Shown here piece after piece: positions 1,214-61,052 of a DNA stretch of 64,000 nucleotides. The notes below the pieces were generated by a model that worked only from the letters and a program-made list of their open reading frames with translations, searched no databases and was not told the origin of the DNA. The position numbers were made by a program, and so were the translations under genes. Each line of letters begins with the position of its first letter. The first letter of the stretch is position 1. This DNA is from an uncultured Pseudomonadota bacterium (lineage in GTDB: Bacteria; Pseudomonadota; Gammaproteobacteria; Natronospirales; REEB76). The DNA lies in assembly GCA_963774895.1 (NCBI GenBank), contig CAVZGN010000001.1, positions 450,419 to 514,418 on the forward strand, given 5' to 3'.

Positions 1214-1230
1214 TGACTTCACAGGTGCTT

Positions 1231-2380: not shown

Positions 2381-2398
2381 CCGCAAATTCAATGGAGT

Positions 2399-2573: not shown

Positions 2574-2618
2574 TCCCCTATTATCATTATCATTCTAGGA
2601 GAAAGAATTGTGACTCGT

Positions 2619-2909: not shown

Positions 2910-2957
2910 TTCCTTCAGTTGAAGTGCTGGCGATTTTCAAGGATTAATATTTCTGCT

Positions 2958-5269: not shown

Positions 5270-5290
5270 AGCGGCGGGGATTCCGCGGTC

Positions 5291-7113: not shown

Positions 7114-7251
7114 TTACCAGATCACGCAGATATCCTTGTTGACCATGGGGCCGTTGTTCGGCACCTGGAAAGCCTGCCGAAATTGCGGCAGATTGGAGAG
7201 TGTGCCGTTGACCCGGAATATAGCCGGCGGATGCGGATCTGTCGGCACACG
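7114..7251 (-). pseudogene. 3'-terminal remnant of an M13 (PepO/neprilysin-type) metallopeptidase gene
   Basis: The last ~45 codons of ORF 7114..7458 read TDPHPPAIFRVNGTLSNLPQFRQAFQVPNNGPMVNKDICVIW. This is the typical M13 C-terminus (DPH.P...RVNG...N...F..AF........C.(I/V)W). The upstream part of the ORF has no similarity. Confidence 0.6.
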
Positions 7252-7268
7252 ACGGCGCGCCTCTTCGG

Positions 7269-7305
7269 ATTTTAAGGATTGGCAGGGAGAGCCAATCCTT
7301 AAAAT
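7269..7305. repeat. 15-bp perfect-stem hairpin at the pepO truncation point
   Basis: attttaaggattggc (7269-7283), 7-nt loop, gccaatccttaaaat (7291-7305). Confidence 0.6.
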
Positions 7306-13401: not shown

Positions 13402-13424
13402 ATTTTTGATTTGCGCGGAAGACC

Positions 13425-14672: not shown

Positions 14673-14730
14673 GGTCGTTCGCAGCGAAACGTTATCAGAC
14701 CTGTTTCTCCAATCGAATGCATTGACGTTC

Positions 14731-22978: not shown

Positions 22979-23128
22979 ATATTTATAGACGATGAGTGTT
23001 GTTTTTAGGTGCATCCAAGGACGCAGGGGGTCACGAAGTGGCGCTGAATTTTCATAATGATTGTATTTGAGGCGAGTTTGTTGGTGGTGCAGAAATAATT
23101 ATTACTGGGTCAAAATCGGTTAATGGCT

Positions 23129-24376: not shown

Positions 24377-24406
24377 AGTCCTTCGTATTTAAGGCAAAAC
24401 ACACAT

Positions 24407-33674: not shown

Positions 33675-33750
<76 letters not shown>

Positions 33751-33900
33751 ATAACGACGCCCGAGAGATCATGCGCCTCTAGAAAACCGTGGTCAGTCCC
33801 AATTATACGATGATATATTTCGGCCTCAGCGAGATATTTCAATGAGCTTCTTGGTAAACAAGGAATATACAAGAAGGAATGCCCCAAATGCGGCTACTGA

Positions 33901-34428
33901 CTAATCAAGGCAGTCAGCAATAGACAAGAGTAAGAAGTTATCATTACCATTTTTAATCAAGATTATATTTCCATTAGTGTATTTCAGCTGTGCGCTGTTA
34001 TCTCCACTCGCTGTCCAATCCATATGTGGAATGTTCTGAATAATACTATTCGCAATTGATACGGCAGTTAATGATGACTCATTACCAGGTATATCAACAT
34101 AAATTGCGTCAATGGTAGGATTCGCAGTTAATCCTGACCATTCTAGGGTGATGATTCGATGATTTAGCACTATCTGTGATGCATATTGACCACAGGCTGG
34201 AAAGGCTTGTGCGTGAATATCAATTCTGTTACCTAATTGTTTTTCTACATCGCTGTGTGTTTCATTTATATATATTCCAGACCAGCCAAGTCTTCCAGCA
34301 TTTATAGCTACATAATCACCTGTATTATTTAAATGCGGGGTAGGGCGTGAGGCACACGTACAAATAAGCGTGCAGGTGCACAACAACCCCAATAGTTGGC
34401 CTAACCTCAAAGCGATCACTACTTGCAT
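33901..34428 (-). CDS. hypothetical secreted/membrane-anchored protein (175 aa)
   Basis: ATG 34428 gives the hydrophobic, Cys-rich N-terminus MQVVIALRLGQLLGLLCTCTLICTCAS. It is the last gene of the minus-strand island operon. Confidence 0.5.
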   Translation of the reverse strand: MQVVIALRLGQLLGLLCTCTLICTCASRPTPHLNNTGDYVAINAGRLGWSGIYINETHSDVEKQLGNRIDIHAQAFPACGQYASQIVLNHRIITLEWSGLTANPTIDAIYVDIPGNESSLTAVSIANSIIQNIPHMDWTASGDNSAQLKYTNGNIILIKNGNDNFLLLSIADCLD

Positions 34429-34498
34429 CAACTCTATCCACAAGCACCGGCTAATCGGAGTCCCATGGGGCGTATGTAAATAGATTCGAATGCGCGCA

Positions 34499-34831
34499 TT
34501 ATTCTGTCGACTCTCTCAAATCTGCTTCGAATGTATTAACACGCTCCGATCCATCCAAAGTAGAACTATCCACCGACCCCACGATGAGTTCATTGTCGAT
34601 TACTTGAGTGGCATATTGGCTTCCGTACTCAACGATCTCCTCCGGGGTCGCGTAAATCCCCTTTGGATGAATCCAATGTATCTGATCCGACAGCCTGCCT
34701 TCTTCGGGTCGAATTATTGCAATTGAAGCTACATACTTAAGTTGCGCAATCGTGTTCAATACACTTGATGGCAATTTATGTGCCGTCACTTTTATTACAA
34801 ATCCCTTGTATCCAAATACTTTTGGTTGCAT
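34499..34831 (-). CDS. island paralog family member P1 (110 aa), unknown function
   Basis: A ggaggg SD lies 7 nt before the ATG. MQPKVFGYKGFVIKV...YVASIAII...HPKGIYATPEEIVEYGSQYATQVIDNE shares the family pattern with P2-P4. Confidence 0.7.
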   Translation of the reverse strand: MQPKVFGYKGFVIKVTAHKLPSSVLNTIAQLKYVASIAIIRPEEGRLSDQIHWIHPKGIYATPEEIVEYGSQYATQVIDNELIVGSVDSSTLDGSERVNTFEADLRESTE

Positions 34832-34977
34832 CGAAAAACCCTCCAAGTTCGTAATGATGACTACTGACGGCCAGTAGATATCAACCGCACATAATCGATG
34901 TAATGCCCTATATCATAAAATACATTGATGATCTAAAAAGTATTATCATTCACGCTCTACCCTAAAGATCCATGTCA

Positions 34978-35298
34978 CTAACTACATTTGACTGAGAGAT
35001 CATTCTCGACAGACTTTACGCCTTTAACATGTCTGGCAACGTTGACGGCTTTGTCAATATCAGATTTAGAATTGATAAAGCCGCTCAATTTGACAATGCC
35101 TTTATATGTTTCAACGGTGATTTCGGTAGATTTGAGTCCTGTCGTGTGTAATAACGCGGTTTTGACGTCGGTTGTAATGACCGCATCGTCTGTGTATGCA
35201 GCTGCGTTCTCACACCTGGCGCCGGAGGAATATGTTATTAGCGGTGCGAATAGTAATATTGAGAGAATGAATGCAATCAGACGTTGATTAATTGACAT
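34978..35298 (-). CDS. periplasmic BON-domain protein (OsmY-like)
   Basis: A signal peptide is present. DDAVITTDVKTALLHTTGLKSTEITVETYKGIVKLSGFINSKSDIDKAVNVARHVKGVKSVENDL is a BON domain. Confidence 0.8.
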   Translation of the reverse strand: MSINQRLIAFILSILLFAPLITYSSGARCENAAAYTDDAVITTDVKTALLHTTGLKSTEITVETYKGIVKLSGFINSKSDIDKAVNVARHVKGVKSVENDLSVKCS

Positions 35299-35341
35299 GA
35301 GATATCCTCCGCATCAAGTTGAGTAATCGTATCGTTGCTCA

Positions 35342-35620
35342 TCAAGCATGACTTAAAGTCAGATCGCTAAAAGTTGTGCAACATAACCCATCATCTAGAG
35401 TGCGCATCGCAAACTGCCTTCCATGTTCCAAAGCTCTCTGTGGAGAGCTGGAGATTCTGCCAGGGTGCAGCCATTTCTCCTGGCATTTATCCGGCATCCA
35501 CGACATACGCACAATTGCAATGGAGACAAATCGCGGGCGATTACTATTACTTTTTGAGGCTAGTTTTACCGGAACTACTTTTATTATGAATCCCATGTAT
35601 TCGAAGTTTTCTTCTAGCAT
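35342..35620 (-). CDS. island paralog family member P2 (92 aa)
   Basis: An aagagg SD lies 7 nt before the ATG. MLEENFEYMGFIIKV...FVSIAIV...LHPGRISSSPQRALEHGRQFAMRTLDD. Confidence 0.7.
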   Translation of the reverse strand: MLEENFEYMGFIIKVVPVKLASKSNSNRPRFVSIAIVRMSWMPDKCQEKWLHPGRISSSPQRALEHGRQFAMRTLDDGLCCTTFSDLTLSHA

Positions 35621-35702
35621 GGCAATACCTCTTTACTCGTATGGTTATGTGAAATGCCCAATGAGGAATTCAAAAACCTATTCTCGACTCAGAGAGATAT
35701 TG

Positions 35703-35718
35703 AGCAATTGGAATGCCA
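35703..35718 (-). promoter_or_regulatory. sigma54 (-24/-12) promoter for the P2-BON-P1 operon
   Basis: The minus strand reads TGGCAT-tccaa-TTGCT, 82 nt upstream of the P2 ATG. Confidence 0.7.
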
Positions 35719-35794
35719 ATGCGAAAAAGCAGCATTCCTCCAATGGGTTATCTCGATTTTATAAGTATGGAATTAATAAAATGCAGATGAAGGA

Positions 35795-35995
35795 TGTCTC
35801 CTTGTGGAGACGAATTTACGCAGGTTGTTGAGTAATACCTTGAAAAAAACGGGTATGCGGGTGTCGGCTCAAGGAGACAGTGTTAACAAAAGCGAGCTAC
35901 CACTCATTCCAAGGCATTAATCAGTACCTCTGCATTGAAGAAATCGTCCGACCTCTTTGTTTACGGAGAACTGCATCTGTCGTCAACGGATGACG
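35795..35995. promoter_or_regulatory. three TGTC-N10-GAC(A/G) sites (candidate enhancer-binding sites) in the divergent control region
   Basis: The sites are TGTCtccttgtggaGACG (35795-35812), TGTCggctcaaggaGACA (35862-35879) and TGTCgtcaacggatGACG (35978-35995). They lie between the two divergent sigma54 promoters. Confidence 0.55.
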
Positions 35996-36078
35996 TTCGA
36001 TTTGTATTTGTGCGTCTTTCGCACAACCGGCGTTAATAAATTATCAGTAAATGTCCCAGTTTGGCAGCGATGCAGCCT

Positions 36079-36094
36079 TGGCATGGCATTTGCT
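36079..36094 (+). promoter_or_regulatory. sigma54 promoter for the 36175-P3-exbBD-tonB operon
   Basis: TGGCAT-ggcat-TTGCT, 80 nt upstream of ATG 36175. Confidence 0.7.
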
Positions 36095-36174
36095 CCTTTG
36101 TATATGCCGGCACGCATAAGCCTATTTGCCGTTGGGAAACTGCATAGCCGCTGCATATTTCTTCAGGAGCAGTT

Positions 36175-36564
36175 ATGAAAAGCGTATGCCTAGTACTGCT
36201 AATGATGTCGTCAGCTTTAGGGTTCAAGTTCGTTGATGCGTATAGCACTGCGCACATCAGCCAGGCTCTAACCCAAGCTGCAACAGGCAAAACAGGCAAT
36301 AACCAGCAGGTAGGAAGCACGTCGCCATTTACATTGGCGTTGGCAGACGCGACGGCAGTGCCGCCTGCGTCAGCTTCCAAAGTTCCAGCAGCGAAAGCGA
36401 AAAAAGCGGGTGCGCCAGCATGCAGCAGGCAACCCCCAGTCAATCATGACGCCCAAGTGATTCCGGCTCGAAATAAGGCGCAGTGGCCGCAATCAAGACT
36501 TCCAGCTGAACAGCAAACGCAATGCCAGGCTCAAAAGCCGTTGCATAAGCCTCCGCCCATCTAA
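36175..36564 (+). CDS. small secreted low-complexity (A/P/Q/K-rich) protein ending in KPPPI
   Basis: The signal peptide is MKSVCLVLLMMSSALGFKFVDA. An aggag SD is present. The C-terminal PPPI tail is shared with the two small lipoproteins at 39059 and 39791. Confidence 0.6.
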   Translation: MKSVCLVLLMMSSALGFKFVDAYSTAHISQALTQAATGKTGNNQQVGSTSPFTLALADATAVPPASASKVPAAKAKKAGAPACSRQPPVNHDAQVIPARNKAQWPQSRLPAEQQTQCQAQKPLHKPPPI

Positions 36565-36649
36565 ATAGATGATTCCTATGCATGCCGGCAGTGCGTCAAG
36601 ACTTAAGACCAAGCGAATCCCAATAACACACAGTGAGAGGAGAGCCAGC

Positions 36650-36943
36650 ATGATCATCGAGAAATTCAGCTATAAGGGTTTCACCATAAAGGTGAGTGCA
36701 CACGAGTTGTTTCACGGTTTTGGTCCTTCGGGAGTCAATTTAGGCTGGTATACCAGTGCAGTCGCCATATCAAAAAAACCGGATGGCGAGTGTCACGATT
36801 GTGAGGAAACCCTGCATCCCGGCAGGATTTCTGTCAGCCCCGAAAGAGCCATGGACTATGGCAAAAATTATGCCAGGCACGTTATTGATGAAGAAATTTT
36901 GTATTCAAACCTGAGTAAATTTCTGACGACGCGTCCGATATGA
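36650..36943 (+). CDS. island paralog family member P3 (97 aa)
   Basis: The SD is gagaggag. MIIEKFSYKGFTIKV...YTSAVAI...LHPGRISVSPERAMDYGKNYARHVIDEE. Confidence 0.7.
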   Translation: MIIEKFSYKGFTIKVSAHELFHGFGPSGVNLGWYTSAVAISKKPDGECHDCEETLHPGRISVSPERAMDYGKNYARHVIDEEILYSNLSKFLTTRPI

Positions 36944-36990
36944 ATACGTTTATTAATCGGACATGACTCTTTGGAAATGGAGGGATGCAC

Positions 36991-37695
36991 ATGAATGCCG
37001 TGACCGACCCAAATATCAACAATATTATCAACCCACCCAACCTGTCGCTCGGCCAACTTGTGCTGCATGCGGATCCAATCGTGCAAGCCGTATTGCTGCT
37101 GCTCTTGGTATTGTCCATATGGAGCTGGGCTGTCATTGTGCAGAAGGCCTTTGAACTGCATCGCGCTAAAAGGGTAGTGAAAAAACTGGAAACCGCTATC
37201 GAAAATGGGCATTCACCGGACGAAATCGGCGTAGTTGAAACGCATCCAGCCGCGGTCGTAATCAAGGCCGGGGTATTGGAATGGCAAACACAAATTCAGC
37301 CGAACTTAGGTGAAACCCCGGGCGAAGAACGTGAACGCATAGAACAAAGCATGCGCAACGCCCTGGGTCGCGAGATGCGCCGCATGCAGAAACGCCTGCC
37401 GCTACTCGCTACCGTGGGTTCGGTCGCAGTATTCATCGGTCTATTTGGCACGGTTTGGGGAATTATGAACAGTTTCACGGCAATTGCCCAAGCCCATGAC
37501 ACAAGTCTCGCTGTGGTAGCTCCCGGCATAGCCCAAGCGCTCATCGGCACAGCAGCTGGTTTGGCTGCGGCGATTCCCGCCGTCATCGGCTACAACAAAT
37601 TGGTAACCGAACTGAACTATTACGCGGGGCGGCTGCAGACGCTTATCAGCGTTTGCAGCAACATGATGGTCAAAAGCATTCGCGTTGGAGCATGA
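36991..37695 (+). CDS. exbB: MotA/TolQ/ExbB proton-channel protein
   Basis: A ggaggg SD lies 6 nt before ATG 36991. FIGLFGTVWGIMNSF and ALIGTAAGLAAAIPAVIGYN are ExbB/TolQ motifs. Confidence 0.85.
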   Translation: MNAVTDPNINNIINPPNLSLGQLVLHADPIVQAVLLLLLVLSIWSWAVIVQKAFELHRAKRVVKKLETAIENGHSPDEIGVVETHPAAVVIKAGVLEWQTQIQPNLGETPGEERERIEQSMRNALGREMRRMQKRLPLLATVGSVAVFIGLFGTVWGIMNSFTAIAQAHDTSLAVVAPGIAQALIGTAAGLAAAIPAVIGYNKLVTELNYYAGRLQTLISVCSNMMVKSIRVGA

Positions 37696-37699
37696 CGAC

Positions 37700-38197
37700 A
37701 TGGGCATGAATGTAACCCCCGGTGCGATGTCCGAAGATACGTTATCCGGTTATCAGCCAATGGCTGAAATCAATGTGACGCCACTGGTTGACGTTATGCT
37801 GGTATTACTCATCATATTTATGATTACAGCGCCTCTTATGATGGCGCAACTGCCCATTGAACTGCCCAAAACCAGCGCGGCGGAACTAGGTAAACCGAAA
37901 CAGCCGCTGATTGTTAGTCTGGATACAAAGGGGCAGTATTATATCGATGACAAACCTACTGCATCTGTGGACTTGCCCACGCAACTCAAGACACTTGCCA
38001 ACCAGGATCCCGATCAGACTGTGTATGTACGCGCTGATAAAGCCATCCCCTACGGGCAAGTGATGGCACTGCTGGGCGAAGTAGGCCAATCCGGGTTTTA
38101 CAGGATATCCTTGATAAGCAAACGGGCGAGTGCCTCAACGAATAGCTCCGGCGCCGCATCGCCTGCTCCCTTGGCAGGCACGCAGCCGCCACGCTGA
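37700..38197 (+). CDS. exbD: biopolymer transport protein ExbD/TolR
   Basis: AEINVTPLVDVMLVLLIIFMITAP is the signature TM segment. Confidence 0.85.
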   Translation: MGMNVTPGAMSEDTLSGYQPMAEINVTPLVDVMLVLLIIFMITAPLMMAQLPIELPKTSAAELGKPKQPLIVSLDTKGQYYIDDKPTASVDLPTQLKTLANQDPDQTVYVRADKAIPYGQVMALLGEVGQSGFYRISLISKRASASTNSSGAASPAPLAGTQPPR

Positions 38198-38200
38198 ATC

Positions 38201-38827
38201 ATGCTCCAATTCAGCCACAGTCTCGGGATATCGGTCGGTATCCATATAGCAGCGGTTCTGCTCCTAATCTTGATTGCCGAATATCATTCGGCCACACCTC
38301 TGCCACCTTCCAACGCATCTTTGGCCGATGCCATCGCCGTCAACATTGTGCCACCACCGCCACCGCAATCACCTCCGCAGCCGCCACAACCACGGGTGCC
38401 ACAGCCGACGCCGCCGGTCCTACAGCCGCCCCCGCAGACTATTTCTACCGAAGCCGCTCAGGCCGATATATCAACACCACCGCCCAAGAGCATTCCAGCT
38501 CCGGCACCGCCGCCGCCCACGCAGAGTCAAACTACGCCTCTGGAAGCGACCTATGCGCAGATTGTCAGCGCCCTTCTGGAAGCAAATAAGCGCTACCCAC
38601 GCCAGGCATTGCTTGCCGGAGAACAGGGCACCGTGATCTTGTGGTTTGTGCTTAACCGTGAAGGTACGGTACTTGCGTATCGGATTGAACAGTCTTCAGG
38701 GCAACTGATATTCGATGAAGCAGTGAAACGCCTTATTCAGCGTATTCATTTTCCACCCTTTCCGAATCGCGATCTGAGCCAACGCAAGACCTTCATGGTA
38801 CCCATACAATTCGAGTTAACGGGATAA
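38201..38827 (+). CDS. tonB: energy transducer TonB
   Basis: An N-terminal TM is followed by a Pro-rich spacer (PPPPPQSPPQPPQPRVPQP). The C-terminal TonB domain reads YPRQALLAGEQGTVILWFVLNREGTV. Confidence 0.85.
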   Translation: MLQFSHSLGISVGIHIAAVLLLILIAEYHSATPLPPSNASLADAIAVNIVPPPPPQSPPQPPQPRVPQPTPPVLQPPPQTISTEAAQADISTPPPKSIPAPAPPPPTQSQTTPLEATYAQIVSALLEANKRYPRQALLAGEQGTVILWFVLNREGTVLAYRIEQSSGQLIFDEAVKRLIQRIHFPPFPNRDLSQRKTFMVPIQFELTG

Positions 38828-38835
38828 ATTGTTGT

Positions 38836-38920
38836 TGTCTCATTCCACCGACATCATATTTTTCACTGAATTCAAGGCGTTGTAGATTCAATCCGGTCTA
38901 AGCGTCACCCTCAGGCGACA
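38836..38920. promoter_or_regulatory. two (T/C)GTC-N10-GACA sites upstream of the third sigma54 promoter
   Basis: The sites are TGTCtcattccaccGACA (38836-38853) and CGTCaccctcaggcGACA (38903-38920). Confidence 0.5.
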
Positions 38921-38982
38921 GATTTCCAGATAACGGTCGGTAAGACCCGCCGAATTAACCGTGTTTGCTGAATATCGGATTC

Positions 38983-38998
38983 TGGCACGTCGTTTGCA
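38983..38998 (+). promoter_or_regulatory. sigma54 promoter for the lipoprotein-P4 operon
   Basis: TGGCAC-gtcgt-TTGCA is a perfect consensus, 60 nt upstream of ATG 39059. Confidence 0.75.
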
Positions 38999-39058
38999 GG
39001 AGTATTCATCGGGTATCGAACCCAGGCTTTTCACTCCATTAAACATGCAGGTGGCGTT

Positions 39059-39262
39059 ATGAAAATCATAGTTGCTGGATGCTTGACAGCTTCGCTGATC
39101 CTCGGGGCACTCTGTGCTTGTAATGGCAATAATCCACAAAATAACCCGCAAGCGACTCCTGCCCCCACTACCCAGCAGGCGCCCGCACAGACAACACAGC
39201 CGGCGCCTACAGCCACGACCAAATCGAAGGCAGGATCGAACGTCGTACCGCCACCCCTCTGA
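39059..39262 (+). CDS. small secreted/lipoprotein, Q/P/T/A-rich, ending in VPPPL
   Basis: 67 aa, with an N-terminal hydrophobic segment and Cys residues (ILGALCAC). TTQQAPAQTTQPAPTATT is paralogous to the 39791 protein. Confidence 0.6.
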   Translation: MKIIVAGCLTASLILGALCACNGNNPQNNPQATPAPTTQQAPAQTTQPAPTATTKSKAGSNVVPPPL

Positions 39263-39290
39263 GGAAAGCCGTTTCACCAGGAGAATTGCC

Positions 39291-39566
39291 ATGACCCATA
39301 AAATCTTCGGCTATAAGGGATTTATCGTAAAGGTGATACCGCGTGAAGTCATTGCCATGCAATCCGCAGCCAACAGACGTATCCGTTATGCAGCATCCGT
39401 GGTGATCATGCGTTTTGTGGATGCCACACGCCACAAAAACGCGATGCGCTGCTATCCGGGTGGCACATGCGTGACGCCGGAGCAAGCGCTGAAGCTGGGC
39501 ACGGAATATGCCACTCACCTGATTGACGATGATTTCTCCATTACTGCGACGGCTGAACAATTCTGA
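39291..39566 (+). CDS. island paralog family member P4 (91 aa)
   Basis: A caggaga SD lies 6 nt before the ATG. MTHKIFGYKGFIVKV...YAASVVI...YPGGTCVTPEQALKLGTEYATHLIDDD. Confidence 0.7.
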   Translation: MTHKIFGYKGFIVKVIPREVIAMQSAANRRIRYAASVVIMRFVDATRHKNAMRCYPGGTCVTPEQALKLGTEYATHLIDDDFSITATAEQF

Positions 39567-39699
39567 ATTGACCGGCATTATTTTACGCTGCTGATCGTCG
39601 CAATGAGACAACGCTTCATTCATACGTTATGCCTATAACAAATGCTATTTGGAATTGGATCTATGCAAAAGGCTTTTAAAATCGGGTGTATTCGAAGCT

Positions 39700-39715
39700 T
39701 GGCATGCAGCTTGCT
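39700..39715 (+). promoter_or_regulatory. sigma54 promoter for the lipoprotein/EF-hand operon
   Basis: TGGCAT-gcagc-TTGCT, 75 nt upstream of ATG 39791. Confidence 0.7.
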
Positions 39716-39790
39716 GCATTTCAATCGGAGACGATATAAAACCATCGTGTTGCTTGTATCAATTTCATCACAACTGGGAAGGAGAGAACC

Positions 39791-39982
39791 ATGAAAATCG
39801 CTAATGCATTGGCTGCGCTACTGACACTCGGCCTTATTGCTGGGTGTTCTGGTAATCCGTCGCAGGACTCACAACAACAAGGTATGAACCCTGCAGGAAC
39901 CACCACACAACAGGCGCCGGCTCCGGCCACGCAGCCAGCACCGGCTCCAACGACCCACCAGCCACCACCCCCGTCGATATGA
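39791..39982 (+). CDS. small lipoprotein, Q/P/T/A-rich, ending in PPPPSI
   Basis: Canonical lipobox LIAGC. An aggagag SD is present. TTTQQAPAPATQPAPAPTT is paralogous to the 39059 protein. Confidence 0.65.
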   Translation: MKIANALAALLTLGLIAGCSGNPSQDSQQQGMNPAGTTTQQAPAPATQPAPAPTTHQPPPPSI

Positions 39983-40060
39983 TCGTGTCATCAGCCTCAG
40001 ACTGACAACGAAAATATCATGTTCAGAGGTAAATCACGCACTCTTATTTTAGAGGCATTT

Positions 40061-40438
40061 ATGAAAAACGTAATCGCAGTAATTTCAGGAATTGTGTTGG
40101 CAATCAGCCTGGGCGCCGCTTTCGCGGGCAATACACCAGCTAGCGGCAAGCAGGATATGCAGAATCCGGAGCAGGCATCGCAGACTCCATCCGATCCTCA
40201 AAATGCATGCAATACCAAATACCCAAGCTTCAGCCAGCTTGATACCAAACATAAGGATTATCTCACCAAGAAAGAAGTAAGCCGGGTTCACGGCCTGGAA
40301 CAGGCATTCAAGAAAGCTGACACCGACCATAATGGGAAACTGAGCGATTCTGAATATACGGCGTGGGTGGAATCCCATTGCAAAAGCAGCATGCTGAACC
40401 AGCAACCGCAGGGGCAGACACCACCACCGGTTGGATGA
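40061..40438 (+). CDS. periplasmic EF-hand calcium-binding protein
   Basis: A signal peptide is present. The EF-hand loop is DTDHNGKLSDSE, with a second degenerate loop DTKHKDYLTKKE. Confidence 0.7.
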   Translation: MKNVIAVISGIVLAISLGAAFAGNTPASGKQDMQNPEQASQTPSDPQNACNTKYPSFSQLDTKHKDYLTKKEVSRVHGLEQAFKKADTDHNGKLSDSEYTAWVESHCKSSMLNQQPQGQTPPPVG

Positions 40439-40486
40439 TTTAAATCGCGCGGTTATTAAACGCGTCTGCTATCAGCAGAACCTGTG

Positions 40487-40530
40487 TTCCGGCAGGGTCC
40501 GTTGGACCCTGCCGGAATGTTGTATATTTG
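40487..40530 (+). terminator. strong rho-independent terminator
   Basis: ttccggcagggtcc-gtt-ggaccctgccggaa forms a 14-bp stem, followed by a T-rich tract. Confidence 0.7.
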
Positions 40531-40705
40531 AATGGCAACTGTGCAAACTATGAAAGCCAGGCACCACCAGCTAGTAGCAAATAAGAAATAAACAGGCGGA
40601 TTTTGCTATAGCTCTTGGCAGAGCTCGACTACAAAGTTTCAGGGAAGGCGCGCAGAACCGCTGTATTTTGGGTGTCAATGGAAATAAGGAGTGTGTGTAG
40701 CACTT

Positions 40706-42142
40706 ATGAAAATTCTTCAGCCCAGCTCGATACGCAAACGGATCCTGTTCTCATTTTCGCTAGTCATGTTACCCCTGGTCTTTGGACTGGCAGTAGCAAT
40801 ACTCTCCATACATAATCTGGCTACACAGGGGCAAAACGCAGTTCTAAACGCCGCCGATACCGTTCAATACAGCCGCACGTTGCTGGAAGAACTACCCGAT
40901 ATGGAACGTAATGCGCTCCAGTACCGGGTACTGCAAGATCAATCGCTGTATAAGCTTTATACAGAACGGCATCAAGAATTCCAGCAGACCAGTACTGCCT
41001 TCTCACGCTTGAAGCTTAATGACACCATGCGTGAAAAACTCAACGAACTTACCACACGAGAGCAAGTCGTTTTCAATAATTTTTCGCGGTTCGATCCAAA
41101 TTCAGACGATTCCAATATGGCAGTGGATCAATTTGAGGATTTGAACAATCTGGCACGCTCCATACTCGCATTAGGCACGCAATCCATCGAAAATGAAATC
41201 AATAATATGCAGACGACTTCCAAAACCCGTCAAAGCCAACTGGCGTGGCTGGTGGCAATTCTGATACTCGCGGGTTTTTGCATGGCTGCAATATCCATCG
41301 TTCTGATCACTCGGCCAATGCGATCAATAGACCAGGCGATAAAGGGAATCGGCGCCGGAGATCTGGCCACCCCGATCGCGGTGAAAGGACCCCAGGATCT
41401 GAATGAACTTGGCAAACGCTTGGACTGGTTGCGCTCCAGGTTGCTTGATCTCGAGCAGCATCGCGTTCGCTTTCTCAGGCATATCTCACATGAACTCAAG
41501 ACACCGTTGACAAACATCCGTGAAGGTTCGCAGTTGTTGACGGATCAGATCGTGGGACCGCTTAATACTGAACAATTGGAAATTGCGCAGATTCTGCAAA
41601 AGAATGGCATGCAGTTGCAACAACGCATCGAAGATCTGCTGAATTACAGCGCCGCGCAAGGGCCTCAATTGTTCGGTGAAAACCAATTGATCAAGTTCAA
41701 TCAGGTGATTGTCAAAGTGATCGAGGACCAGAAGATGGCCATCAAGGCCAAACACATAAAAATCGATGCGCACTTGCATGAAGTCGCCATACTGGCTGAT
41801 GCGGAAAAAATTCGTATCGTAGTGGACAATCTGCTTTCCAACGCCATCAAATACTCGCCCATGGGCGGTGTAATCGGGCTGAATCTAAAGGTAGAGAATG
41901 GTCAAGCGGTTTTGAATGTGGAAGATCAAGGTCCAGGCATCAAAGCGGATGAGCGGGAGAAGGTTTTTGAAGCTTTTTATCAGGGCCAGGGCAGTGACAG
42001 CGGTTATGTAAAAGGCACCGGATTGGGTCTATCCATCGCCCGCGAATATATACGTCTGCACCAAGGTATGATTGAGATCGTCGAACGACAGCATGGAGCA
42101 GGCTTTCGGATTGCTCTACCCGCTACGGGATCAGGAGGCTGA
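40706..42142 (+). CDS. sensor histidine kinase (GlrK/QseE-like)
   Basis: Two TM segments, a HAMP-like region, the H-box FLRHISHELKTPLTNI and the ATPase motifs NAIKYSP, DQGPGI, GTGLGLSI. GTG 40691 is an alternative start. Confidence 0.8.
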   Translation: MKILQPSSIRKRILFSFSLVMLPLVFGLAVAILSIHNLATQGQNAVLNAADTVQYSRTLLEELPDMERNALQYRVLQDQSLYKLYTERHQEFQQTSTAFSRLKLNDTMREKLNELTTREQVVFNNFSRFDPNSDDSNMAVDQFEDLNNLARSILALGTQSIENEINNMQTTSKTRQSQLAWLVAILILAGFCMAAISIVLITRPMRSIDQAIKGIGAGDLATPIAVKGPQDLNELGKRLDWLRSRLLDLEQHRVRFLRHISHELKTPLTNIREGSQLLTDQIVGPLNTEQLEIAQILQKNGMQLQQRIEDLLNYSAAQGPQLFGENQLIKFNQVIVKVIEDQKMAIKAKHIKIDAHLHEVAILADAEKIRIVVDNLLSNAIKYSPMGGVIGLNLKVENGQAVLNVEDQGPGIKADEREKVFEAFYQGQGSDSGYVKGTGLGLSIAREYIRLHQGMIEIVERQHGAGFRIALPATGSGG

Positions 42143-42754
42143 ATGCGCAGGAATTTGCCTGGCCTAGTTGTATCGCTCGTCATCAGCATTATTCTGGTTT
42201 TGACGGGATGTATTCCCCGCTCCACAAAGCCGGATGTGCTTATGATCCCTGAAACAGGTGACGGCCAAATTGTCAGATTGATGGACTACGTCAACACCGT
42301 CTTGAGTCTGCCACCGGCTGCTCAGGCGGCCACGCAGGAAAACCTTAGGCAGCAATATAATCTAACGCAGTTCCCCGAAGACCGGATGCGACTTGCGCTT
42401 TTGGATGTTCTGTCGGACAGGCCGTCGCGCAATCTGGATGAGGCTGTGTCATTAGTATCTGGATATAACTGGGAAGTAGTGGGGCCGGGATTCAAGGGCT
42501 TGGCCAATCTGCTATTAAATATTGCCAGTAGTCAGCAAGCAATCGCCACAATTGACCAGTCACTCGCGCAGCAATTGGCTTCGGAGCGCTCACAAAAAGA
42601 TCATCTTCAACAACAACTGGACGCGTTGAAGAGTATCGAGAAAACCATGGATAAACGCGACAAGTCGATAGTGGCTCCACCCATCCGCAAGCTGCCGCCA
42701 GCCTCAACCAGCAACTCACAACCTCCAGCCACACCCCCTGGGGAGCAGCTTTGA
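42143..42754 (+). CDS. lipoprotein encoded between kinase and regulator (QseG/YfhG-like position)
   Basis: Lipobox LVLTGC. 203 aa. The position mirrors E. coli glrK-qseG-glrR. I cannot assert sequence similarity to QseG. Confidence 0.55.
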   Translation: MRRNLPGLVVSLVISIILVLTGCIPRSTKPDVLMIPETGDGQIVRLMDYVNTVLSLPPAAQAATQENLRQQYNLTQFPEDRMRLALLDVLSDRPSRNLDEAVSLVSGYNWEVVGPGFKGLANLLLNIASSQQAIATIDQSLAQQLASERSQKDHLQQQLDALKSIEKTMDKRDKSIVAPPIRKLPPASTSNSQPPATPPGEQL

Positions 42755-44127
42755 AAGCCACGCCCGCAAAAGCGATCTTGACTACGGGACGTATTCTGGT
42801 TGCTGACGATGACCCCGGCCTGCTGCGCCTGTTAGTCATGCGTCTGACCGCTGCGGGGCACGAGGTGCGTACGGTGGAAAGCGGCGAACAGGCCTTGGCG
42901 CAGATCCCGCTGTTCCGGCCACACGCGGTCATAACCGATATGCGCATGGCGGGTATGGATGGTATTGAGCTATTTAACAACATACGGCGCCATGATCAAT
43001 CTTTGCCAGTGATCATTCTCACCGCTCATGGCACTATTCCTGACGCCGTGGATGCCACCCATAAAGGAGTATTTGCCTATCTCACCAAACCCTTCGATAG
43101 CAAATCACTGTTGAAATGGGTGAACGATGCCTTGCGGATATCCGGCAAGCTTGAATTAAAAGATGTTGAAAACGCAGATGCTGCATGGCGTGCGGACATT
43201 ATCACACGCAGCCTGCTGATGGAGGATTTGTTGCGTCAAGCGAAGCTCGTATCTGCGGGCGATACGGCGGTTCTCATACAAGGTGAGAGTGGTACCGGCA
43301 AGGAACTATTGGCGCGTGCCATTCACAACGCCAGCCCGCGCGGCGACAAGCCGTTCATAGCCGTCAACTGTGCCGCGATCCCGGAAACCCTGCTGGAATC
43401 CGAGCTTTTCGGATACAGCAAGGGCGCATTCACCGGTGCAACCTCGGACCGGCGCGGCCTGTTTCAGGCCGCACATACCGGTACTCTATTCCTGGATGAG
43501 ATTGGCGACATGCCTTTGAGTTTCCAGGTGAAATTGTTGCGTGCGTTGCAGGAGAAAGAAATCCGGCCGGTTGGTTCGAATAATCCTATCGCAGTGGATG
43601 TACGCATTATTTCGGCCACGAACCATGACCTTGAAAAGAAGGTCTCGGAACAGGGGTTCCGCGAAGATCTATATTATCGGCTGGCAGTAGTGCCGCTGAC
43701 CATGCCACCGCTGGCAGCCCGCCGCGAAGATATTCCGCTCCTGGTTACCCATTTCCTAAGCCATGCGGGAGGAAGCAATACAAAAAGCATCAAAGGATTT
43801 GCACCCCGGGCCATGGAACTATTATTGAGTGCGCCTTGGCCGGGCAATGTGCGGCAGCTACAGAACGTAGTGGAACAAACCGTAGCACTTACCACCACCC
43901 CCCTCATACCGGAAGTCCTGGTACAAAATGCCCTGCGTGAGAAGACCGGACAAGTCACTTCCCTGGTCGAAGCGCGGGAACATTTTGAACGCGAATACCT
44001 GGTACAACTACTGCAAATCACCGAGGGCAACGTAAGTCAGGCAGCACACCTGGCGCAGCGGAATCGCACTGAATTCTACAAACTTTTACACCGTTACCAA
44101 CTTAAACCAGAGGAATTCCGATCCTGA
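42751..44127 (+). CDS. sigma54-dependent response regulator (GlrR/QseF-like, NtrC family)
   Basis: The receiver domain reads ILVADDDPGLLRLLVMRLT...PVIILTAHGTIPDAVDATHKGVFAYLTKP, close to my memory of GlrR. The AAA+ domain shows GESGTGKE and GAFTGA. A C-terminal Fis-type HTH is present. The TTG start overlaps the upstream stop. Confidence 0.85.
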   Translation: MKATPAKAILTTGRILVADDDPGLLRLLVMRLTAAGHEVRTVESGEQALAQIPLFRPHAVITDMRMAGMDGIELFNNIRRHDQSLPVIILTAHGTIPDAVDATHKGVFAYLTKPFDSKSLLKWVNDALRISGKLELKDVENADAAWRADIITRSLLMEDLLRQAKLVSAGDTAVLIQGESGTGKELLARAIHNASPRGDKPFIAVNCAAIPETLLESELFGYSKGAFTGATSDRRGLFQAAHTGTLFLDEIGDMPLSFQVKLLRALQEKEIRPVGSNNPIAVDVRIISATNHDLEKKVSEQGFREDLYYRLAVVPLTMPPLAARREDIPLLVTHFLSHAGGSNTKSIKGFAPRAMELLLSAPWPGNVRQLQNVVEQTVALTTTPLIPEVLVQNALREKTGQVTSLVEAREHFEREYLVQLLQITEGNVSQAAHLAQRNRTEFYKLLHRYQLKPEEFRS

Positions 44128-44234
44128 TTCGGTGCGAGTTGATACCGCCCATATATTAACAGCGGATTCTGTACTTTGAGAAGGGCGAGCGCCGCATGTA
44201 AGTGATTTTGATCGAACGCTTAAATATAACTTGT

Positions 44235-44280
44235 ATTCGTAATGCGTGGGTCGGGAGTTCGACTCTCTCCGCCGGCACCA
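44235..44280 (+). repeat. attR: displaced 3' fragment of tRNA-Thr (46 bp)
   Basis: attcgtaatgcgtgggtcgggagttcgactctctccgccggcacca is identical to 33705-33750. Confidence 0.9.
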
Positions 44281-44468
44281 AAAGAGCAAATGAATTAGCT
44301 AGTTGATTGATTTCTTGGTTCCGCTACTGGCGTTCAAGTAGCGATCGTTTACAGACATCATCAATTGATGATATATCCGCGGAAGGGTAATATTCGAAGG
44401 GATGAGTTTCAGTAGTGCCGGCCGCTTAAGGAAATTCAAAGTCGCCTGTGTGACAAGGAACGGCCAGA

Positions 44469-44923
44469 ATGACGCCGGTACGCCGCAAGCGTCTGATGGT
44501 TGTCGCCGTTATCATTGTGGGCCTGGCGACCGCCGCTACTGCCTTGGGTTTGCAGGCATTCAAGAAAAACCTGCTGTATAACTTCACACCCGCACAGGTA
44601 GCGGCCGCCGTGCGCACCTCGGCCAGCTGTTCCACATAAGTGGCCATGGCGGCCATGGGGAGTATTCTGTGCCACCCTGGCAGTATGACACCTCCAAGGT
44701 TATGCAGAAATCCAGCCCGGTGGTGTATTCTGGGATGCTATCGGACCTGTTTCGTGAAGGCCAAGGCATAGTGGTGTATGGCAAGCTGGACAAGAATGCA
44801 TTGTTCGTGGCTCAACAGGTGCTGGCCAAGCACGATGCCACCTACACGCCGCCGGAAGTGAACGCCGCCATCAAGAAAGCCGAGGTCGAGCAGCGGGCCG
44901 CGGCCGTAAAAGGTGTTACATGA
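44469..44923 (+). pseudogene. ccmE: cytochrome c maturation heme chaperone CcmE, reading frame disrupted
   Basis: ATG 44469 gives [46 protein letters not shown] and stops at TAA 44637-44639. The conserved part [23 protein letters not shown]...[14 protein letters not shown] is in another frame, ending at 44923 with an ATGA overlap with ccmF. The span is 455 nt, not a multiple of 3. Confidence 0.7.
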
Positions 44924-46926
44924 TTCCCGAACTCGGTCATCTTGCGTTGATTATTGCCCTGTGTCTGGCAGCGGCCCAAAGTTTTTTTGGTCTCGGCGGT
45001 GCGCAGCGCTCCAATCTTATCTGGATGAGCGCAGTGCGCTCGGCAGCAGTCGGACAGTCCTTGTTTGTATTGCTGGCTTTTACAGCGCTGGCTTATTCGT
45101 TTCTGATGAATGATTTCTCCGTGGCTTACGTGGCAGCCAATTCCAATACTGCCTTGCCCTGGCCTTATAAATTCACGGCGGTTTGGGGCGCGCATGAAGG
45201 TTCTCTGTTGCTGTGGGTCAGCGTGCTTGCTATATGGACCCTGGCGGTCGCGCGCTTCAGCCGTCATCTGCCACAGGATTTTTCCAGCCGCGTTCTGGGC
45301 GTGCTCGGCGTGATCAGCATCGGATTCTTGCTGTTCATGCTGACCACCTCTGATCCGTTTGGACGGCTGTTGCCGCCTGCGCAACAGGGCGCAGACCTGA
45401 ATCCCGTACTCCAGGATCCCGGCATGGCGATCCATCCGCCGATGCTGTACATGGGCTATGTTGGGATGTCGGTGGCCTTCGCCTTTGCGGTAGCCGCATT
45501 GCTCAGCGGCCGCATGGATGTCATGTGGGCCCGCTGGTCGCGGCCCTGGACCCTGGTGGCCTGGCTGTTTCTGACCTGTGGAATCACGTTCGGCAGCTGG
45601 TGGTCCTATTACGTGCTGGGCTGGGGCGGGTTCTGGTTCTGGGACCCAGTGGAAAACGCGTCGTTTATGCCGTGGCTGGTTGGAACGGCGCTGGTGCATT
45701 CGCTGGCAGTAACTGAAAAACGCGGCGCCTTTAAAAGCTGGACCGCTTTGCTGGCTATCACGGCGTTTTCTCTGAGCCTGCTCGGCACCTTTCTGGTGCG
45801 TTCCGGGATCTTGATTTCGGTGCACGCCTTCGCTAGCGATCCTAAGCGCGGTATTTTTATATTGGCCATGCTCGGTTTATTTATCGGTGTCGCGCTCACT
45901 TTGTATGCCTGGCGCGCTCCCATGTTCAGCCAGCGTGGCGGGGGATTCAAAATATTTTCCCGTGAGACTTTCCTGCTGCTCAACAATGTCTTTCTGGTGG
46001 TGGCCGCAGCTGCGGTTCTGCTCGGCACGCTGTACCCGCTGGTGCTGGGAGCGCTCGGGCTTGGCCAGATTTCAGTCGGTCCACCGTACTTTGACCATAT
46101 ATTCGTACCTCTAATGGTGCCATTTTTCATTCTGGCGGGCATAGGTCCGTATGTACGCTGGAAACACGGCAATATCTCTGAAACACTTGCAAAATTGCGG
46201 GTGCCGGCAGCATTGGCATTGCTGGCGGGCGTGGTGGTGATCGTGCTGCTGCGGGCTGAGGCCAGTTTCATTGCTACGGCCGGTGTGCTGCTGGCGGCCT
46301 GGATGATCTTCAGCGCATTGCAGGAACCCGTGCAGCGTATGTGGCAGCGGCTGCATCATGGGCATGCCAGCTTGGCACACAGCATTCTCGGCATGAGCGT
46401 CGCACATTTTGGAGCTGGTCTCATGATTCTCGGCGTAACCGTAAACTCCATGCTGGGGATTACCGTGGACCAGGTGATGAAACCGGGTACCAGCGTCGAA
46501 GTGCACGGTTATAAGTATTCATTTCAAGGCGTACGGGATGTATCCGGCCCCAATTATCAGGCGGTCCAGGGTACCGTGGCGGTGACCCGTGGCGGAAAAA
46601 TACTCACGCTGATTCACCCGGAAAAGCGCCAGTTCGATACTGGTGGCATGACTACCACCGAAGCGGCCATTGCTCCGGGACCATTCCGGGATCTGTACGT
46701 GGCGCTCGGCAACCCGCTGGGGCAGGATGCCTGGAGCGTGCGTATTGAATATAAACCTCTGGTCAGGTTCATCTGGCTGGGCGGGCTGACCATGATGTTG
46801 GGCGGAATCATCGCGCTTATGGATAAGCGCTACCGGCGTACCCGGGTGCCAGTCGCAATCGACGCGAGCACCCCACCCAAGGATGCTGACGCGAATCTGC
46901 CTAAATCTCCTGCAACGGAACGCTGA
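44920..46926 (+). CDS. ccmF: cytochrome c-type biogenesis protein CcmF (heme lyase)
   Basis: 668 aa and polytopic. [11 protein letters not shown] and [19 protein letters not shown] form the WWD-type domain. Confidence 0.9.
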
Positions 46927-47468
46927 TGCGCCGTCGATTGATTTTCATTCTGCCGATGGCGGTGCTGATTGCACTCATTGGGTTCTTTTGGCGCGGTCTG
47001 TATCTCAATCCAACCATCGTGTCGTCACCGCTGATCGGCAAGCCGGTGCCGGATTTCAGCTTGTCGCGTTTGCATGATCCGAAACAGACATTCGATCAGA
47101 ACCAGCTCAAGGGTCAGGTGTCCCTGGTCAATGTCTGGGCCACCTGGTGCGTGGCCTGCCGTGATGAGCAGCAGACGCTGGTCGAATTCTCCAAGCAGAA
47201 TGTCGTGCCGATTTATGGGTTCGATTACAAAGATGACCGGCAGAGCGCCATTCAATGGCTCGCTGAACGCGGCAATCCTTATACCGCGGTGGTTTTCGAT
47301 CCGACCGGTAACGTGGCCATCAACTGGGGAATTTATGGAGCACCAGAGACCTTCTTGATTGATTCGCATGGCATCATCCGTTTCAAATATATCGGCCCTA
47401 TCACCCCCGATGTGATCCAGAAGGAATTGCTGCCTCGTATCCAGGCATTAAACCGCGAGCATACATGA
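46926..47468 (+). CDS. ccmG: thiol:disulfide oxidoreductase CcmG/DsbE
   Basis: VNVWATWCVACRDE is a thioredoxin CxxC, GVYGAPETFLID-like motifs are present, and there is an N-terminal anchor. Confidence 0.9.
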   Translation: MRRRLIFILPMAVLIALIGFFWRGLYLNPTIVSSPLIGKPVPDFSLSRLHDPKQTFDQNQLKGQVSLVNVWATWCVACRDEQQTLVEFSKQNVVPIYGFDYKDDRQSAIQWLAERGNPYTAVVFDPTGNVAINWGIYGAPETFLIDSHGIIRFKYIGPITPDVIQKELLPRIQALNREHT

Positions 47469-47881
47469 GATCCTGGATCCTGATTGTGGGCTGCATGATG
47501 TTGATGGTGTCCCACCTGGCGTGGGGGATCGATAGCGAACCGGCATTCACTGACCCCGTATTTGAGCACCGCTATGAACGTTTACTCCAGGAAATCCGCT
47601 GTTTGCAATGCATGAATGAAAACATTGCCAACTCCGATGCGCCGCTGGCCGTTGATTTCCGCCGCCAAATCCACGCGAAAGTTGCAGAGGGTCAAAGCGA
47701 GCAGCAGATCCTACAGTACATGGTCAATCGCTACGGGGATTTTATCCTTTACGATCCCCCGCTGCAGGCCAACACCTGGCTATTGTGGATGGGACCCTTC
47801 TTGTTGTTGGGTATCGCGTTGATCGTGGTGATTATGATAGTGCGGCGGCGGGCCAACATGGATGACGGGCGGGAGTCATAA
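47465..47881 (+). CDS. ccmH: cytochrome c-type biogenesis protein CcmH
   Basis: IRCLQCMNENIANSDAPLAVDFR matches the LRCxxC motif, and a C-terminal TM is present. Confidence 0.85.
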   Translation: MRSWILIVGCMMLMVSHLAWGIDSEPAFTDPVFEHRYERLLQEIRCLQCMNENIANSDAPLAVDFRRQIHAKVAEGQSEQQILQYMVNRYGDFILYDPPLQANTWLLWMGPFLLLGIALIVVIMIVRRRANMDDGRES

Positions 47882-47883
47882 GC

Positions 47884-49080
47884 ATGCTGTTTATTGCAAT
47901 TGCAGCTGTCATGCTCTGCGTCGCAGCCGCGTGCGTGGCGGTACCGCTGTGGCGGCACCGTTCGCCCGACGCTCCCTCCTATGAAACCGCCTATCGGTCC
48001 GCACATTTAAACCAAGTGGATGAACTGGCGAGGGATCTGGCGGCCGGCCGGCTCGCAACAGCCGATCATGTGGCGGCGCGCCGGGATCTGGAACGTGAGC
48101 TGGCTTTAAGCCTTAAAGCCGGTGATGTTGGAACGCATCAATACAGGTCGCCAGGACCGGGTAACCACATATTGGCGATCGCTGCCGGAGTGATTTTGTT
48201 AATCGCCATGGCCATTGGCTACTGGCAGTTGGGGAATTGGCGGGTGGCGGTTGAAGGTGTCACAGCCGCAAGTGCTTACAATATCGAGCAGATGGCGGCA
48301 GAACTATCCCATAAGCTTAACACCACTGAACCAAACAATTTGGAGGGCTGGCTGATGTTAGGACGTGCCTATGCGCTCATGGATCGATATAACGATGCAG
48401 TCCAGGCCTTTGGAAAGGCGAATAAATTATCAGGTGATGCCAATCCGGACATTCTGGCGGCTTATGCTGAAGCGATCTCGCTTGCGAATCCGGACCAATT
48501 CATGCAAAAAGCGGCGCCATTGTTCGAGCAAGTCCTGAAAATTGACCCGAACAATGAACAAGGATTATGGTACGGTGGGCTTGCTGCTTCAATACGTGGC
48601 GATAATAAGCTGGCGGTGCAGCGCTGGCAAACGCTACTTGGAGAGAATCTATCCCCACAATATCAAAAGCAGGTAATTCAGTATATTGAAGAAGCTGGCG
48701 GTCAGGCGATCGCAGCGCCTCCCATAACTGCGACAGCAATCCATATTTATCTGACGCTGGATCCAGCGTTGCTAAACAAGGTTAGCCCTGATGCAACTGT
48801 GTTTGTGTTTGCAGAATCATTGCAGCAATCTGGTGGACCACCGCTAGCCGTGCGTCGGCTTCAGGTACGCGATTTGCCGCTTGATGTAACTCTTAGCGAT
48901 GCTGACTCCATGGTGGCGGGCAGGACTTTGCAGGGTTTTCCTAAAGTCAAAGTAATTGCCCGCATTGCAATAAACGGGAATCCATTGCTCAGTCATGGGG
49001 ATTTTGAGGGTAGCGCCGTGTGGAATCGTAGCGCCAGCGATAAACTACTTGATATCGATATTAAAACCAAAGTCCCGTGA
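47884..49080 (+). CDS. ccmI: c-type cytochrome biogenesis protein CcmI (CycH), TPR
   Basis: An N-terminal TM pair, then TPR-like repeats (GWLMLGRAYALMDRYNDAVQAFGKA). It occupies the position after ccmH. Confidence 0.75.
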   Translation: MLFIAIAAVMLCVAAACVAVPLWRHRSPDAPSYETAYRSAHLNQVDELARDLAAGRLATADHVAARRDLERELALSLKAGDVGTHQYRSPGPGNHILAIAAGVILLIAMAIGYWQLGNWRVAVEGVTAASAYNIEQMAAELSHKLNTTEPNNLEGWLMLGRAYALMDRYNDAVQAFGKANKLSGDANPDILAAYAEAISLANPDQFMQKAAPLFEQVLKIDPNNEQGLWYGGLAASIRGDNKLAVQRWQTLLGENLSPQYQKQVIQYIEEAGGQAIAAPPITATAIHIYLTLDPALLNKVSPDATVFVFAESLQQSGGPPLAVRRLQVRDLPLDVTLSDADSMVAGRTLQGFPKVKVIARIAINGNPLLSHGDFEGSAVWNRSASDKLLDIDIKTKVP

Positions 49081-58277: not shown

Positions 58278-58964
58278 ATGAACTGGGCCCAGGTCGAAGA
58301 ATACCTGAAGAAGGATGACCGGGCGGTGCTGCCCATCGGCAGCACCGAGCAGCATGCCCAGCTGAGCCTGTGTGTGGACTATATCCTCTCCGAACGGGTG
58401 GCCGTGGAAGCCGCGGAACCCCTGCAGGTGCCGGTATTCCCCGGGGTGCCTTACGGCATCACGCCTTATTTCATGGGTTATCCGGGCACCGTCAGCCTGA
58501 GCGCGGATACCTATGTGCGGGTGATACGCGACATCCTGGACAGCCTGGCCACCCATGGATTCAAGCGCATCGTCATGGTCAACGGGCACGGTGGCAACAC
58601 GCCGGTGCAGGCCGCTCTCAAAGAATGGCTGGCTGCCCATCCGGGCGTGACGGTGAAATTCCACAACTGGTGGAATGCGCCGGCCACCTGGAAAAAGGTC
58701 ATGGAGATCGATCCGCTGGCGTCGCACGCTTCGTGGATGGAAAACTTCCCATGGACCCGGATCGCGGGCGTGGATATTCCGACAGAACAAAAGTCCATGA
58801 TCGACATCGCGCGCATCCGCTCACTGGATCCGGCTGCGGCCAGACGCCACATCGGCGACGGCAATTTCGGCGGCTACTACCAGCGTTCCGATGAGGACAT
58901 GCTGGCTGTGTGGCGCACCGGGGTCGAAGAGACGCGCCAGGTGATCACCAATGACTGGACGTGA
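58278..58964 (+). CDS. creatininase-family amidohydrolase
   Basis: ATG 58278. AVLPIGSTEQHAQLSL and IVMVNGHGGN are typical of the creatininase family. Confidence 0.75.
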   Translation: MNWAQVEEYLKKDDRAVLPIGSTEQHAQLSLCVDYILSERVAVEAAEPLQVPVFPGVPYGITPYFMGYPGTVSLSADTYVRVIRDILDSLATHGFKRIVMVNGHGGNTPVQAALKEWLAAHPGVTVKFHNWWNAPATWKKVMEIDPLASHASWMENFPWTRIAGVDIPTEQKSMIDIARIRSLDPAAARRHIGDGNFGGYYQRSDEDMLAVWRTGVEETRQVITNDWT

Positions 58965-60941: not shown

Positions 60942-61052
60942 GGCGACGGCAATTTCGGCGGCTATTACCAGCGTTCCGATGAAGAGATGCTGGCCGTGTG
61001 GCGTACCGGGGTCGAAGAGACGCGCCAGGTGATCGCGGATAGCTGGACGTGA
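60942..61052 (+). pseudogene. relic 3' end of a creatininase-family gene (diverged duplicate of 58854-58964)
   Basis: 111 nt align without gaps to 58854-58964 with ~11 mismatches by eye, including the TGA. No 5' part precedes it. Confidence 0.75.

Follow-up and report, generated by a model that had tools for sequence, protein, structure and literature searches.

The window, the whole 64-kb stretch of DNA analysed here, comes from an uncultured Pseudomonadota bacterium and carries genes for System I of cytochrome c maturation on its plus strand. Using Pfam we found intact copies of ccmF (44920-46926), ccmG/dsbE (46926-47468), ccmH (47465-47881) and ccmI (47884-49080). The first three are equal in length to their counterparts in L089, a close relative whose CcmF is 91% identical at the amino-acid level. 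Open reading frames (ORFs) with CXXCH motifs at 51371, 51987 and 53560 agree with an earlier count of at least three c-type cytochromes in the window. Directly upstream of ccmF lies a 455-nt stretch (44469-44923, plus strand) related to ccmE, the gene for the haem chaperone of System I, CcmE (CycJ); we refer to this stretch as the relic. A 111-nt direct repeat with 91% identity was also seen at 58854-58964 and 60942-61052, 2.1 kb apart.

Genomic islands that target tRNA genes are bounded by a duplicated tRNA 3' end. Upstream of the relic, ARAGORN identified an intact tRNA-Thr(CGT) gene (33675-33750, plus strand). Its 3' 46 nt, together with one flanking base, form the left, attL-like copy of a direct repeat (33705-33751), and the right, attR-like copy (44235-44281), also on the plus strand, is 100% identical to it over 47 nt. 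Between the right copy and the ccmE ATG there are 187 nt, in agreement with the preliminary description, which had placed an attR beside ccmE. The 10.5-kb insert between the repeats (33752-44234) has a GC content of 42-55%, compared with 58-62% upstream and about 0.57 in ccmF, and it encodes a BON-domain protein, ExbB/ExbD/TonB, an EF-hand protein, a histidine kinase and a sigma-54 response regulator. The perfect 47-nt repeat of the tRNA-Thr 3' end and the lower GC inside are like those of tRNA-targeted islands. The insert differs from them in its cargo of TonB/ExbBD and a two-component sigma-54 system, and in that a Pfam search of 14 ORFs between 33901 and 44127, which covered ORFs shorter than 100 aa in part, revealed neither an integrase nor an excisionase domain. 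It may be a degenerate, immobilised island. Elsewhere in the window, two insertion sequence copies of about 1.27 kb (13415-14682 and 23122-24385) stand in direct orientation and bracket about 8.4 kb in a layout like that of a composite transposon. An ORF of 389 aa and terminal inverted repeats of some 45 nt are present in each copy, and over their first 300 nt the two are 100% identical.

The right repeat is separated from the ccmE ATG by a leader of 187 nt (44282-44468, plus strand). A simple consensus scan of the plus strand from 44050 to 45000 found no promoter or terminator, and transcription of ccmFGHI must now come either from this leader or by read-through from the insert. The leader contains a perfect 16-bp palindrome, ATCATCAATTGATGAT, at 44357-44372, which is flanked by the hexamers TTTACA and TATATC. 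The palindrome could act as an operator at a weak ccmFGHI promoter.

The relic is divided between two reading frames, as had been reported, and we confirmed both of its ORFs, the TAA at 44637-44639 and the 455-nt span. The 5' ORF (44469-44639, plus strand, 56 aa) starts with MTPVRRKRL and encodes the membrane anchor as far as FTPAQVAA, after which a run of out-of-frame residues leads to the TAA. Residues 1-46 of this ORF align to positions 1-45 of the NCBIfam model NF009729 and to intact homologs, so the N-terminal anchor is present, yet it is no longer joined to the haem-binding domain. The 3' ORF (44669-44923, plus strand, 84 aa) lies in the other frame, has a GTG start preceded by GGGGAG, and encodes the C-terminal half of the OB fold including the haem-binding motif HDATY. 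It matches positions 50-99 of the 99 in the Pfam CcmE family (PF03100) with E = 2.8e-16 and is identical to the database protein P0070. The histidine and tyrosine of its HxxxY motif fall in columns that are invariant in a 54-sequence alignment. The stop of the 84-aa ORF overlaps the ccmF ATG at 44920 (ATGA, 44920-44923), and a stop/ATG overlap of this kind, with ccmE directly upstream of ccmF, is also found in L089 and in a second relative, L002. What the relic lacks is a single uninterrupted ORF of about 150 aa.

Lesions were called in a five-way nucleotide alignment of the window with four intact ccmE genes, two of them operon-linked (L089 and L002) and two solo (the P0002 gene in L082/L083 and P0003 in L084). 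All four intact genes agree in core length, and the window alone shows five length differences. Three of these break the frame and are unique to the window: a loss of 1 nt between 44610 and 44611, a gain of 1 nt near 44646 and a loss of 10 nt between 44688 and 44689 (all on the plus strand), the last of which removed the codons for TVHF in the first β-strands. The other two keep the frame and measure 3 nt each, one being an insertion in the anchor and the other a difference in the variable tail. No indel falls within a homopolymer. The homologous reading path thus runs from the ATG frame to the -1 frame, returns to the ATG frame and then shifts to the -1 frame a second time, which bears out the earlier suspicion of more than one indel. 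In nucleotide alignments to intact ccmE, the most damaged part of the core is 44640-44692 (plus strand). The +1 lesion lies inside a near-repeat, ggccatggc/ggccatggg (44642-44659), that had been read as a 9-nt tandem duplication. The near-repeat is present, but a 9-nt duplication as the lesion was rejected, since relatives read GGxCTGGTGGCCATGGG (G-L-V-A-M-G) at this place and the window therefore has one extra base plus substitutions. Because the lesions sit 330-410 nt from the right tRNA-Thr repeat, the reading frame was not disrupted by the insertion itself.

Substitutions accompany the indels. We aligned the frame-corrected relic with 53 intact CcmE proteins, to which it is 49-74% identical, and found that it breaks 13 of the 55 columns that are invariant among them, 12 by substitution and one by deletion. 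In a leave-one-out control, intact CcmE proteins broke 0.25 invariant columns on average and four at most. The residues lost include RMGG (HISG in the relic), GSVxR (GSILC), TD (KV), LPDLF (LSDLF) and YMPPE (YTPPE). We also scored the sequences with NF009729, the CcmE equivalog model, which has a curated cut-off of 171 bits. P0002 (200.6 bits) and the L089 CcmE (204 bits) scored above the cut-off, whereas the fully frame-corrected relic (129.5 bits) and a reading of about 152 codons obtained by repairing one base (117.2 bits) both scored below it. The preliminary description had held that its claim of a disrupted gene would fail if resequencing restored a single open frame of about 151 codons. 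This proved too lenient, since the low scores of both repaired readings and the loss of 13 invariant positions indicate that one resequenced base would not rescue the relic. The segment 44580-44745 is the best conserved among intact ccmE genes (78-93%) and the least conserved in the window (67-76%), and a divergence peak at this place would be as expected for lifted constraint. Window-specific substitutions are distributed 8:11:11 over the three codon positions, a spread that fits neutral evolution but does not differ significantly from that in the other sequences (p = 0.38). Taken together, the relic is like CcmE in its place directly upstream of ccmF with the ATGA overlap and in its still recognisable N-terminal anchor, REGQG motif and HDATY motif. 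It is unlike a functional CcmE in a frame broken three times with a premature TAA, in the 10 nt deleted from the β-barrel core, and in the loss of invariant positions together with a score that stays under the cut-off even after repair.

These lesions could in principle be sequencing or assembly artefacts, the true ccmE being intact and the indels being consensus errors or the product of a mis-join between paralogs. The lesions rest on one assembly, as no independent assembly of 44469-44816 was found. Searched for as exact matches, the 56-aa and 84-aa ORFs and seven further candidate gene calls returned the source contig only, an exact 33-nt search over the TAA/+1 region gave no matches in JGI metagenomes, and a scan of metagenome contigs anchored on CcmF yielded distant relatives only (≤56% identity), none of them informative on the lesions. 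In addition, one added base suffices for an open frame of about 152 codons, the long-read relative L089 itself shows likely indel errors (a split ccmB, a truncated ccmI and a tRNA-Leu with an odd anticodon), and assemblies break at a 31-mer common to the relic and the P0002 gene. However, an artefact would have to account for three separate indels, one of them a 10-nt deletion and none in a homopolymer, as well as for 12 substitutions at invariant positions, which are impossible through indel errors, and repair of the frame does not bring the score up to that of a CcmE. From 44817 on, 12.1 kb of the window matches L001, a Logan contig that was built independently, with 100% identity, and this indicates that the assembly is accurate nearby. 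The first position of L001 (k=31), 44817, falls exactly on the 30-mer that the relic and the P0002 gene have in common; these two ccmE copies match exactly over 31 nt at most (44816-44846, plus strand). A Logan break at the shared 30-mer is expected if both copies are in that sample. A chimera with the P0002 gene is excluded by the position of the lesions, all of which lie upstream of the 31-mer, in sequence only 74-78% identical to that gene. Overall, we consider an artefact very unlikely. Contig L090 (JGI 3300082198, 1-105), which comes from another assembly and a related species (81% nucleotide identity), likewise begins about 100 nt upstream of ccmF, at nearly the same position as the Logan contig. 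A repeat shared with a solo ccmE of the same sample was rejected as the cause of that break, the longest match being 17 nt.

Another reading is that the stretch is expressed in a non-standard way, through programmed frameshifting, as a split CcmE of 56 and 84 aa, or with its 84 codons serving as a leader coupled to ccmF. An open 3' frame of 115 codons, a GTG (44669) with GGGGAG before it at a spacing of 6 nt, a stop that overlaps the ccmF start and a 3' third with few window-specific changes all fit this idea. Nevertheless, three shifts in different directions would be needed, and the homologs examined are single ORFs. The four closest genes are uninterrupted over 152-154 codons and do not share the frameshift, and 119 of the 120 protein matches listed are 144-156 aa long, the exception being P0070, the window's own 84-aa product. 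That product would have no signal or anchor and no first β-strands, and invariant residues of the fold are lost. The better preservation of the 3' third can be put down to a baseline constraint that is weaker there, or to gene conversion with the P0002 gene in the past. We therefore regard non-standard expression as highly improbable.

A second ccmE elsewhere in the genome was one of three outcomes foreseen in the preliminary description. A homology search bore out this outcome, as it revealed P0002, an intact CcmE of 154 aa recorded on a contig of 918,908 bp. The window's 56-aa ORF, 84-aa ORF, CcmF and sigma-54 regulator are likewise recorded on a contig of 918,908 bp, and it is almost certain, from this equal length and not from coordinates, that P0002 and the relic share one contig. 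The P0002 gene lies outside the 64-kb window. On two short contigs (L082/L083) it stands alone, with a gene upstream whose translation reads as a cytochrome-b-like membrane protein, and a gene downstream that is placed where the related solo locus L091 has Polyketide_cyc (PF03364). We infer that this solo gene works and provides the haem chaperone, and ccmFGHI presumably work with solo CcmE and separately encoded CcmABCD. These findings bear on the possibility that the relic is the sole ccmE of the organism and that cytochrome c maturation by System I is impaired or lost. Within the 64-kb window there is indeed no other ccm gene for haem delivery. Against such a loss, P0002 passes the equivalog cut-off and is recorded on a contig of the same 918,908 bp, ccmFGHI are intact and conserved, several nearby CXXCH cytochrome genes are intact, and a ccmABCD contig is found in the same sequencing run as the window (see below). 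A loss of maturation is barely credible on this evidence.

The absence of ccmABCD upstream of the relic was verified with tblastn, in which CcmC and CcmD of a relative matched nothing in the 64-kb window. A homolog search with cluster listing found no CcmC on the 918,908-bp contig among the closest clusters. The best CcmC candidate, P0252, is on an NCBI/ENA contig of 481,421 bp and in Logan run ERR11593882, which also holds the contig identical to the window. The locus in this run, L092, has the order tRNA-Cys, tRNA-Leu, ccmA, ccmB, ccmC, ccmD, a ccmE stub of about 28 nt and unrelated genes. At L092 2400-2440 the stub directly follows ccmD, and its ATG is changed to GTG. From the shared run and the similar sources, the L092 contig is likely to come from the same genome as the window. 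Its ccmC is 78% identical to that of L089 at the nucleotide level, versus 84% for the window ccmF, and L092 could therefore belong to a co-occurring relative instead. A 3' ccmE scar in L092 was considered and rejected, the 26-nt match being too weak.

The leader in front of the relic carries a possible trace of the same junction. Its final stretch of about 45 nt (44424-44468), whose TGA overlaps the ccmE ATG, weakly resembles the 3' end of L092 ccmD and is, by this resemblance, a probable ccmD remnant. Across the ccmD/ccmE junction, the window and L092 agree at 34 of 41 nt (blastn E = 1e-4); the score of the upstream part of the ccmD likeness alone was reached by 47 of 1000 shuffles, which is marginal. 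The junction seemingly exists twice, in L092 and at 44424-44497 of the window, with about 83% identity. Its presence at both places would imply that the operon split was duplicative instead of clean.

We compared these arrangements with those of relatives. L089, found by protein look-ups, has an intact ccmABCDEFGHI operon in the order tRNA-Cys, integrase island, tRNA-Leu and ccmABCDEFGHI, followed by the same downstream neighbours as in the window. Its sequence becomes homologous to the window from the ccmE ATG onward. In L002 (CcmF 82% identical in amino acids), found in a genome scan with CcmF, ccmC, ccmD, ccmE and ccmF are contiguous and overlapping. In L084-L088 a solo gene next to Mtr/multihaem cytochrome genes is the only ccmE; some 4 kb from it are ccmFGHI, upstream of which no ccmE trace was detected. 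L091 again has a solo ccmE after multihaem cytochrome genes. Judged by this series of gene orders, the window is an intermediate between the intact operon (L089 and L002) and full loss of the operon copy of ccmE. Horizontal replacement at the ccmE/ccmF border was rejected, as identity shows no sharp step there and over the first 300 nt of ccmF, too, reaches only 76-78% to L089.

The neighbourhoods of these genes show further features. In L084 (2615-10465) the solo ccmE is beside an MtrB/PioB-like porin and decahaem-type and NapC/NirT-type cytochromes, and in L091 (1687-5262) beside multihaem and NapC/NirT-type cytochromes. Maturation or structural genes of NiFe hydrogenase also occur near solo ccmE in relatives. 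This company suggests that solo ccmE travels with genes for extracellular electron transfer. In L089 an integrase/AlpA island (982-6177) lies between tRNA-Cys and tRNA-Leu (7218-7304), immediately upstream of ccmA, and the neighbourhood of the ccm operon looks like a hot spot of repeated integration.

The clade may have three System I loci, namely ccmABCD, solo ccmE beside multihaem cytochrome clusters, and ccmFGHI. One can go further and propose that the clade runs System I from these three loci, with solo CcmE recruited for making multihaem cytochromes in large amounts, and that the 84-codon 3' ORF of the relic is kept by selection as a leader that couples translation into ccmF. The leader part of this proposal is based on the SD-like GGGGAG, the GTG at 44669, the stop overlapping the ccmF ATG and the fact that ccmABCD-E is no longer upstream. 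We consider the proposal as a whole unlikely.

The relationship between the two ccmE copies was examined at the nucleotide level. The 36 nt that follow the P0002 stop match the start of the window ccmF in register at 22 of 36 positions (p ~3e-5), and this resemblance suggests that solo ccmE originated when an operon copy was duplicated. Candidate ccmD remnants in front of the solo ccmE copies did not score significantly against shuffles and were dropped. Site patterns group the relic with the solo copies, and 15 sites support {L089, L002} against the rest. A simple history in which the relic is the plain ortholog of the operon gene, without gene conversion, leaves this grouping with the solo copies, and not with L089, unaccounted for. 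The Thr codon of HDATY (44841-44843), which lies within the exact 31-nt match, is ACC in the relic and the P0002 gene only; the remaining three genes of the alignment encode Lys there (AAG or AAA). This shared codon and the exact 31-mer hint at past gene conversion between the copies. Such conversion between the relic and the P0002 gene would explain both the grouping and the shared ACC codon.

We conclude, with a probability of about 0.85, that 44469-44923 is a pseudogene of the operon-linked ccmE of an ancestral ccmABCDEFGHI operon, redundant beside an intact solo ccmE on the same contig. This conclusion draws on the lesions, the losses of invariant residues, the gene orders of relatives and a paralog that is intact and recorded on a contig of equal length. 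In the history that we propose, the ancestor would have had a single ccmABCDEFGHI operon, as the close relative L089 still does. A duplication would have placed a solo ccmE elsewhere, and the operon would have been broken near the ccmD/ccmE junction, leaving ccmE-FGHI behind the tRNA-Thr gene, which would later have received the 10.5-kb insert. With a solo ccmE supplying the haem chaperone, the operon-linked copy would have become redundant and been released from selection, and would then have accumulated three indels, a premature stop and many replacements of invariant residues. Throughout, ccmFGHI would have stayed under selection and remained intact.

Decay of redundant paralogs is routine. 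The case described here is ordinary decay of a redundant ccmE copy, with no new mechanism and no defect in cytochrome c maturation. Distribution of System I genes outside one operon has been described in Shewanella oneidensis, in which ccmABCDE and ccmFGH form separate operons (PMC3769277). The window is similar in that ccmFGH(I) form a unit of their own. It differs in that the split falls between ccmD and ccmE, and in that the working ccmE is a third, stand-alone locus while a decayed ccmE is still attached to ccmF. A broken ccmE beside intact ccmFGHI and cytochrome genes could mislead annotation into a loss of maturation or a faulty assembly. Seen together with its relatives, the locus is a snapshot of operon fragmentation, from the intact operon of a relative, through a ccmE relic followed by ccmFGHI, to ccmFGHI without a trace of ccmE in other relatives.
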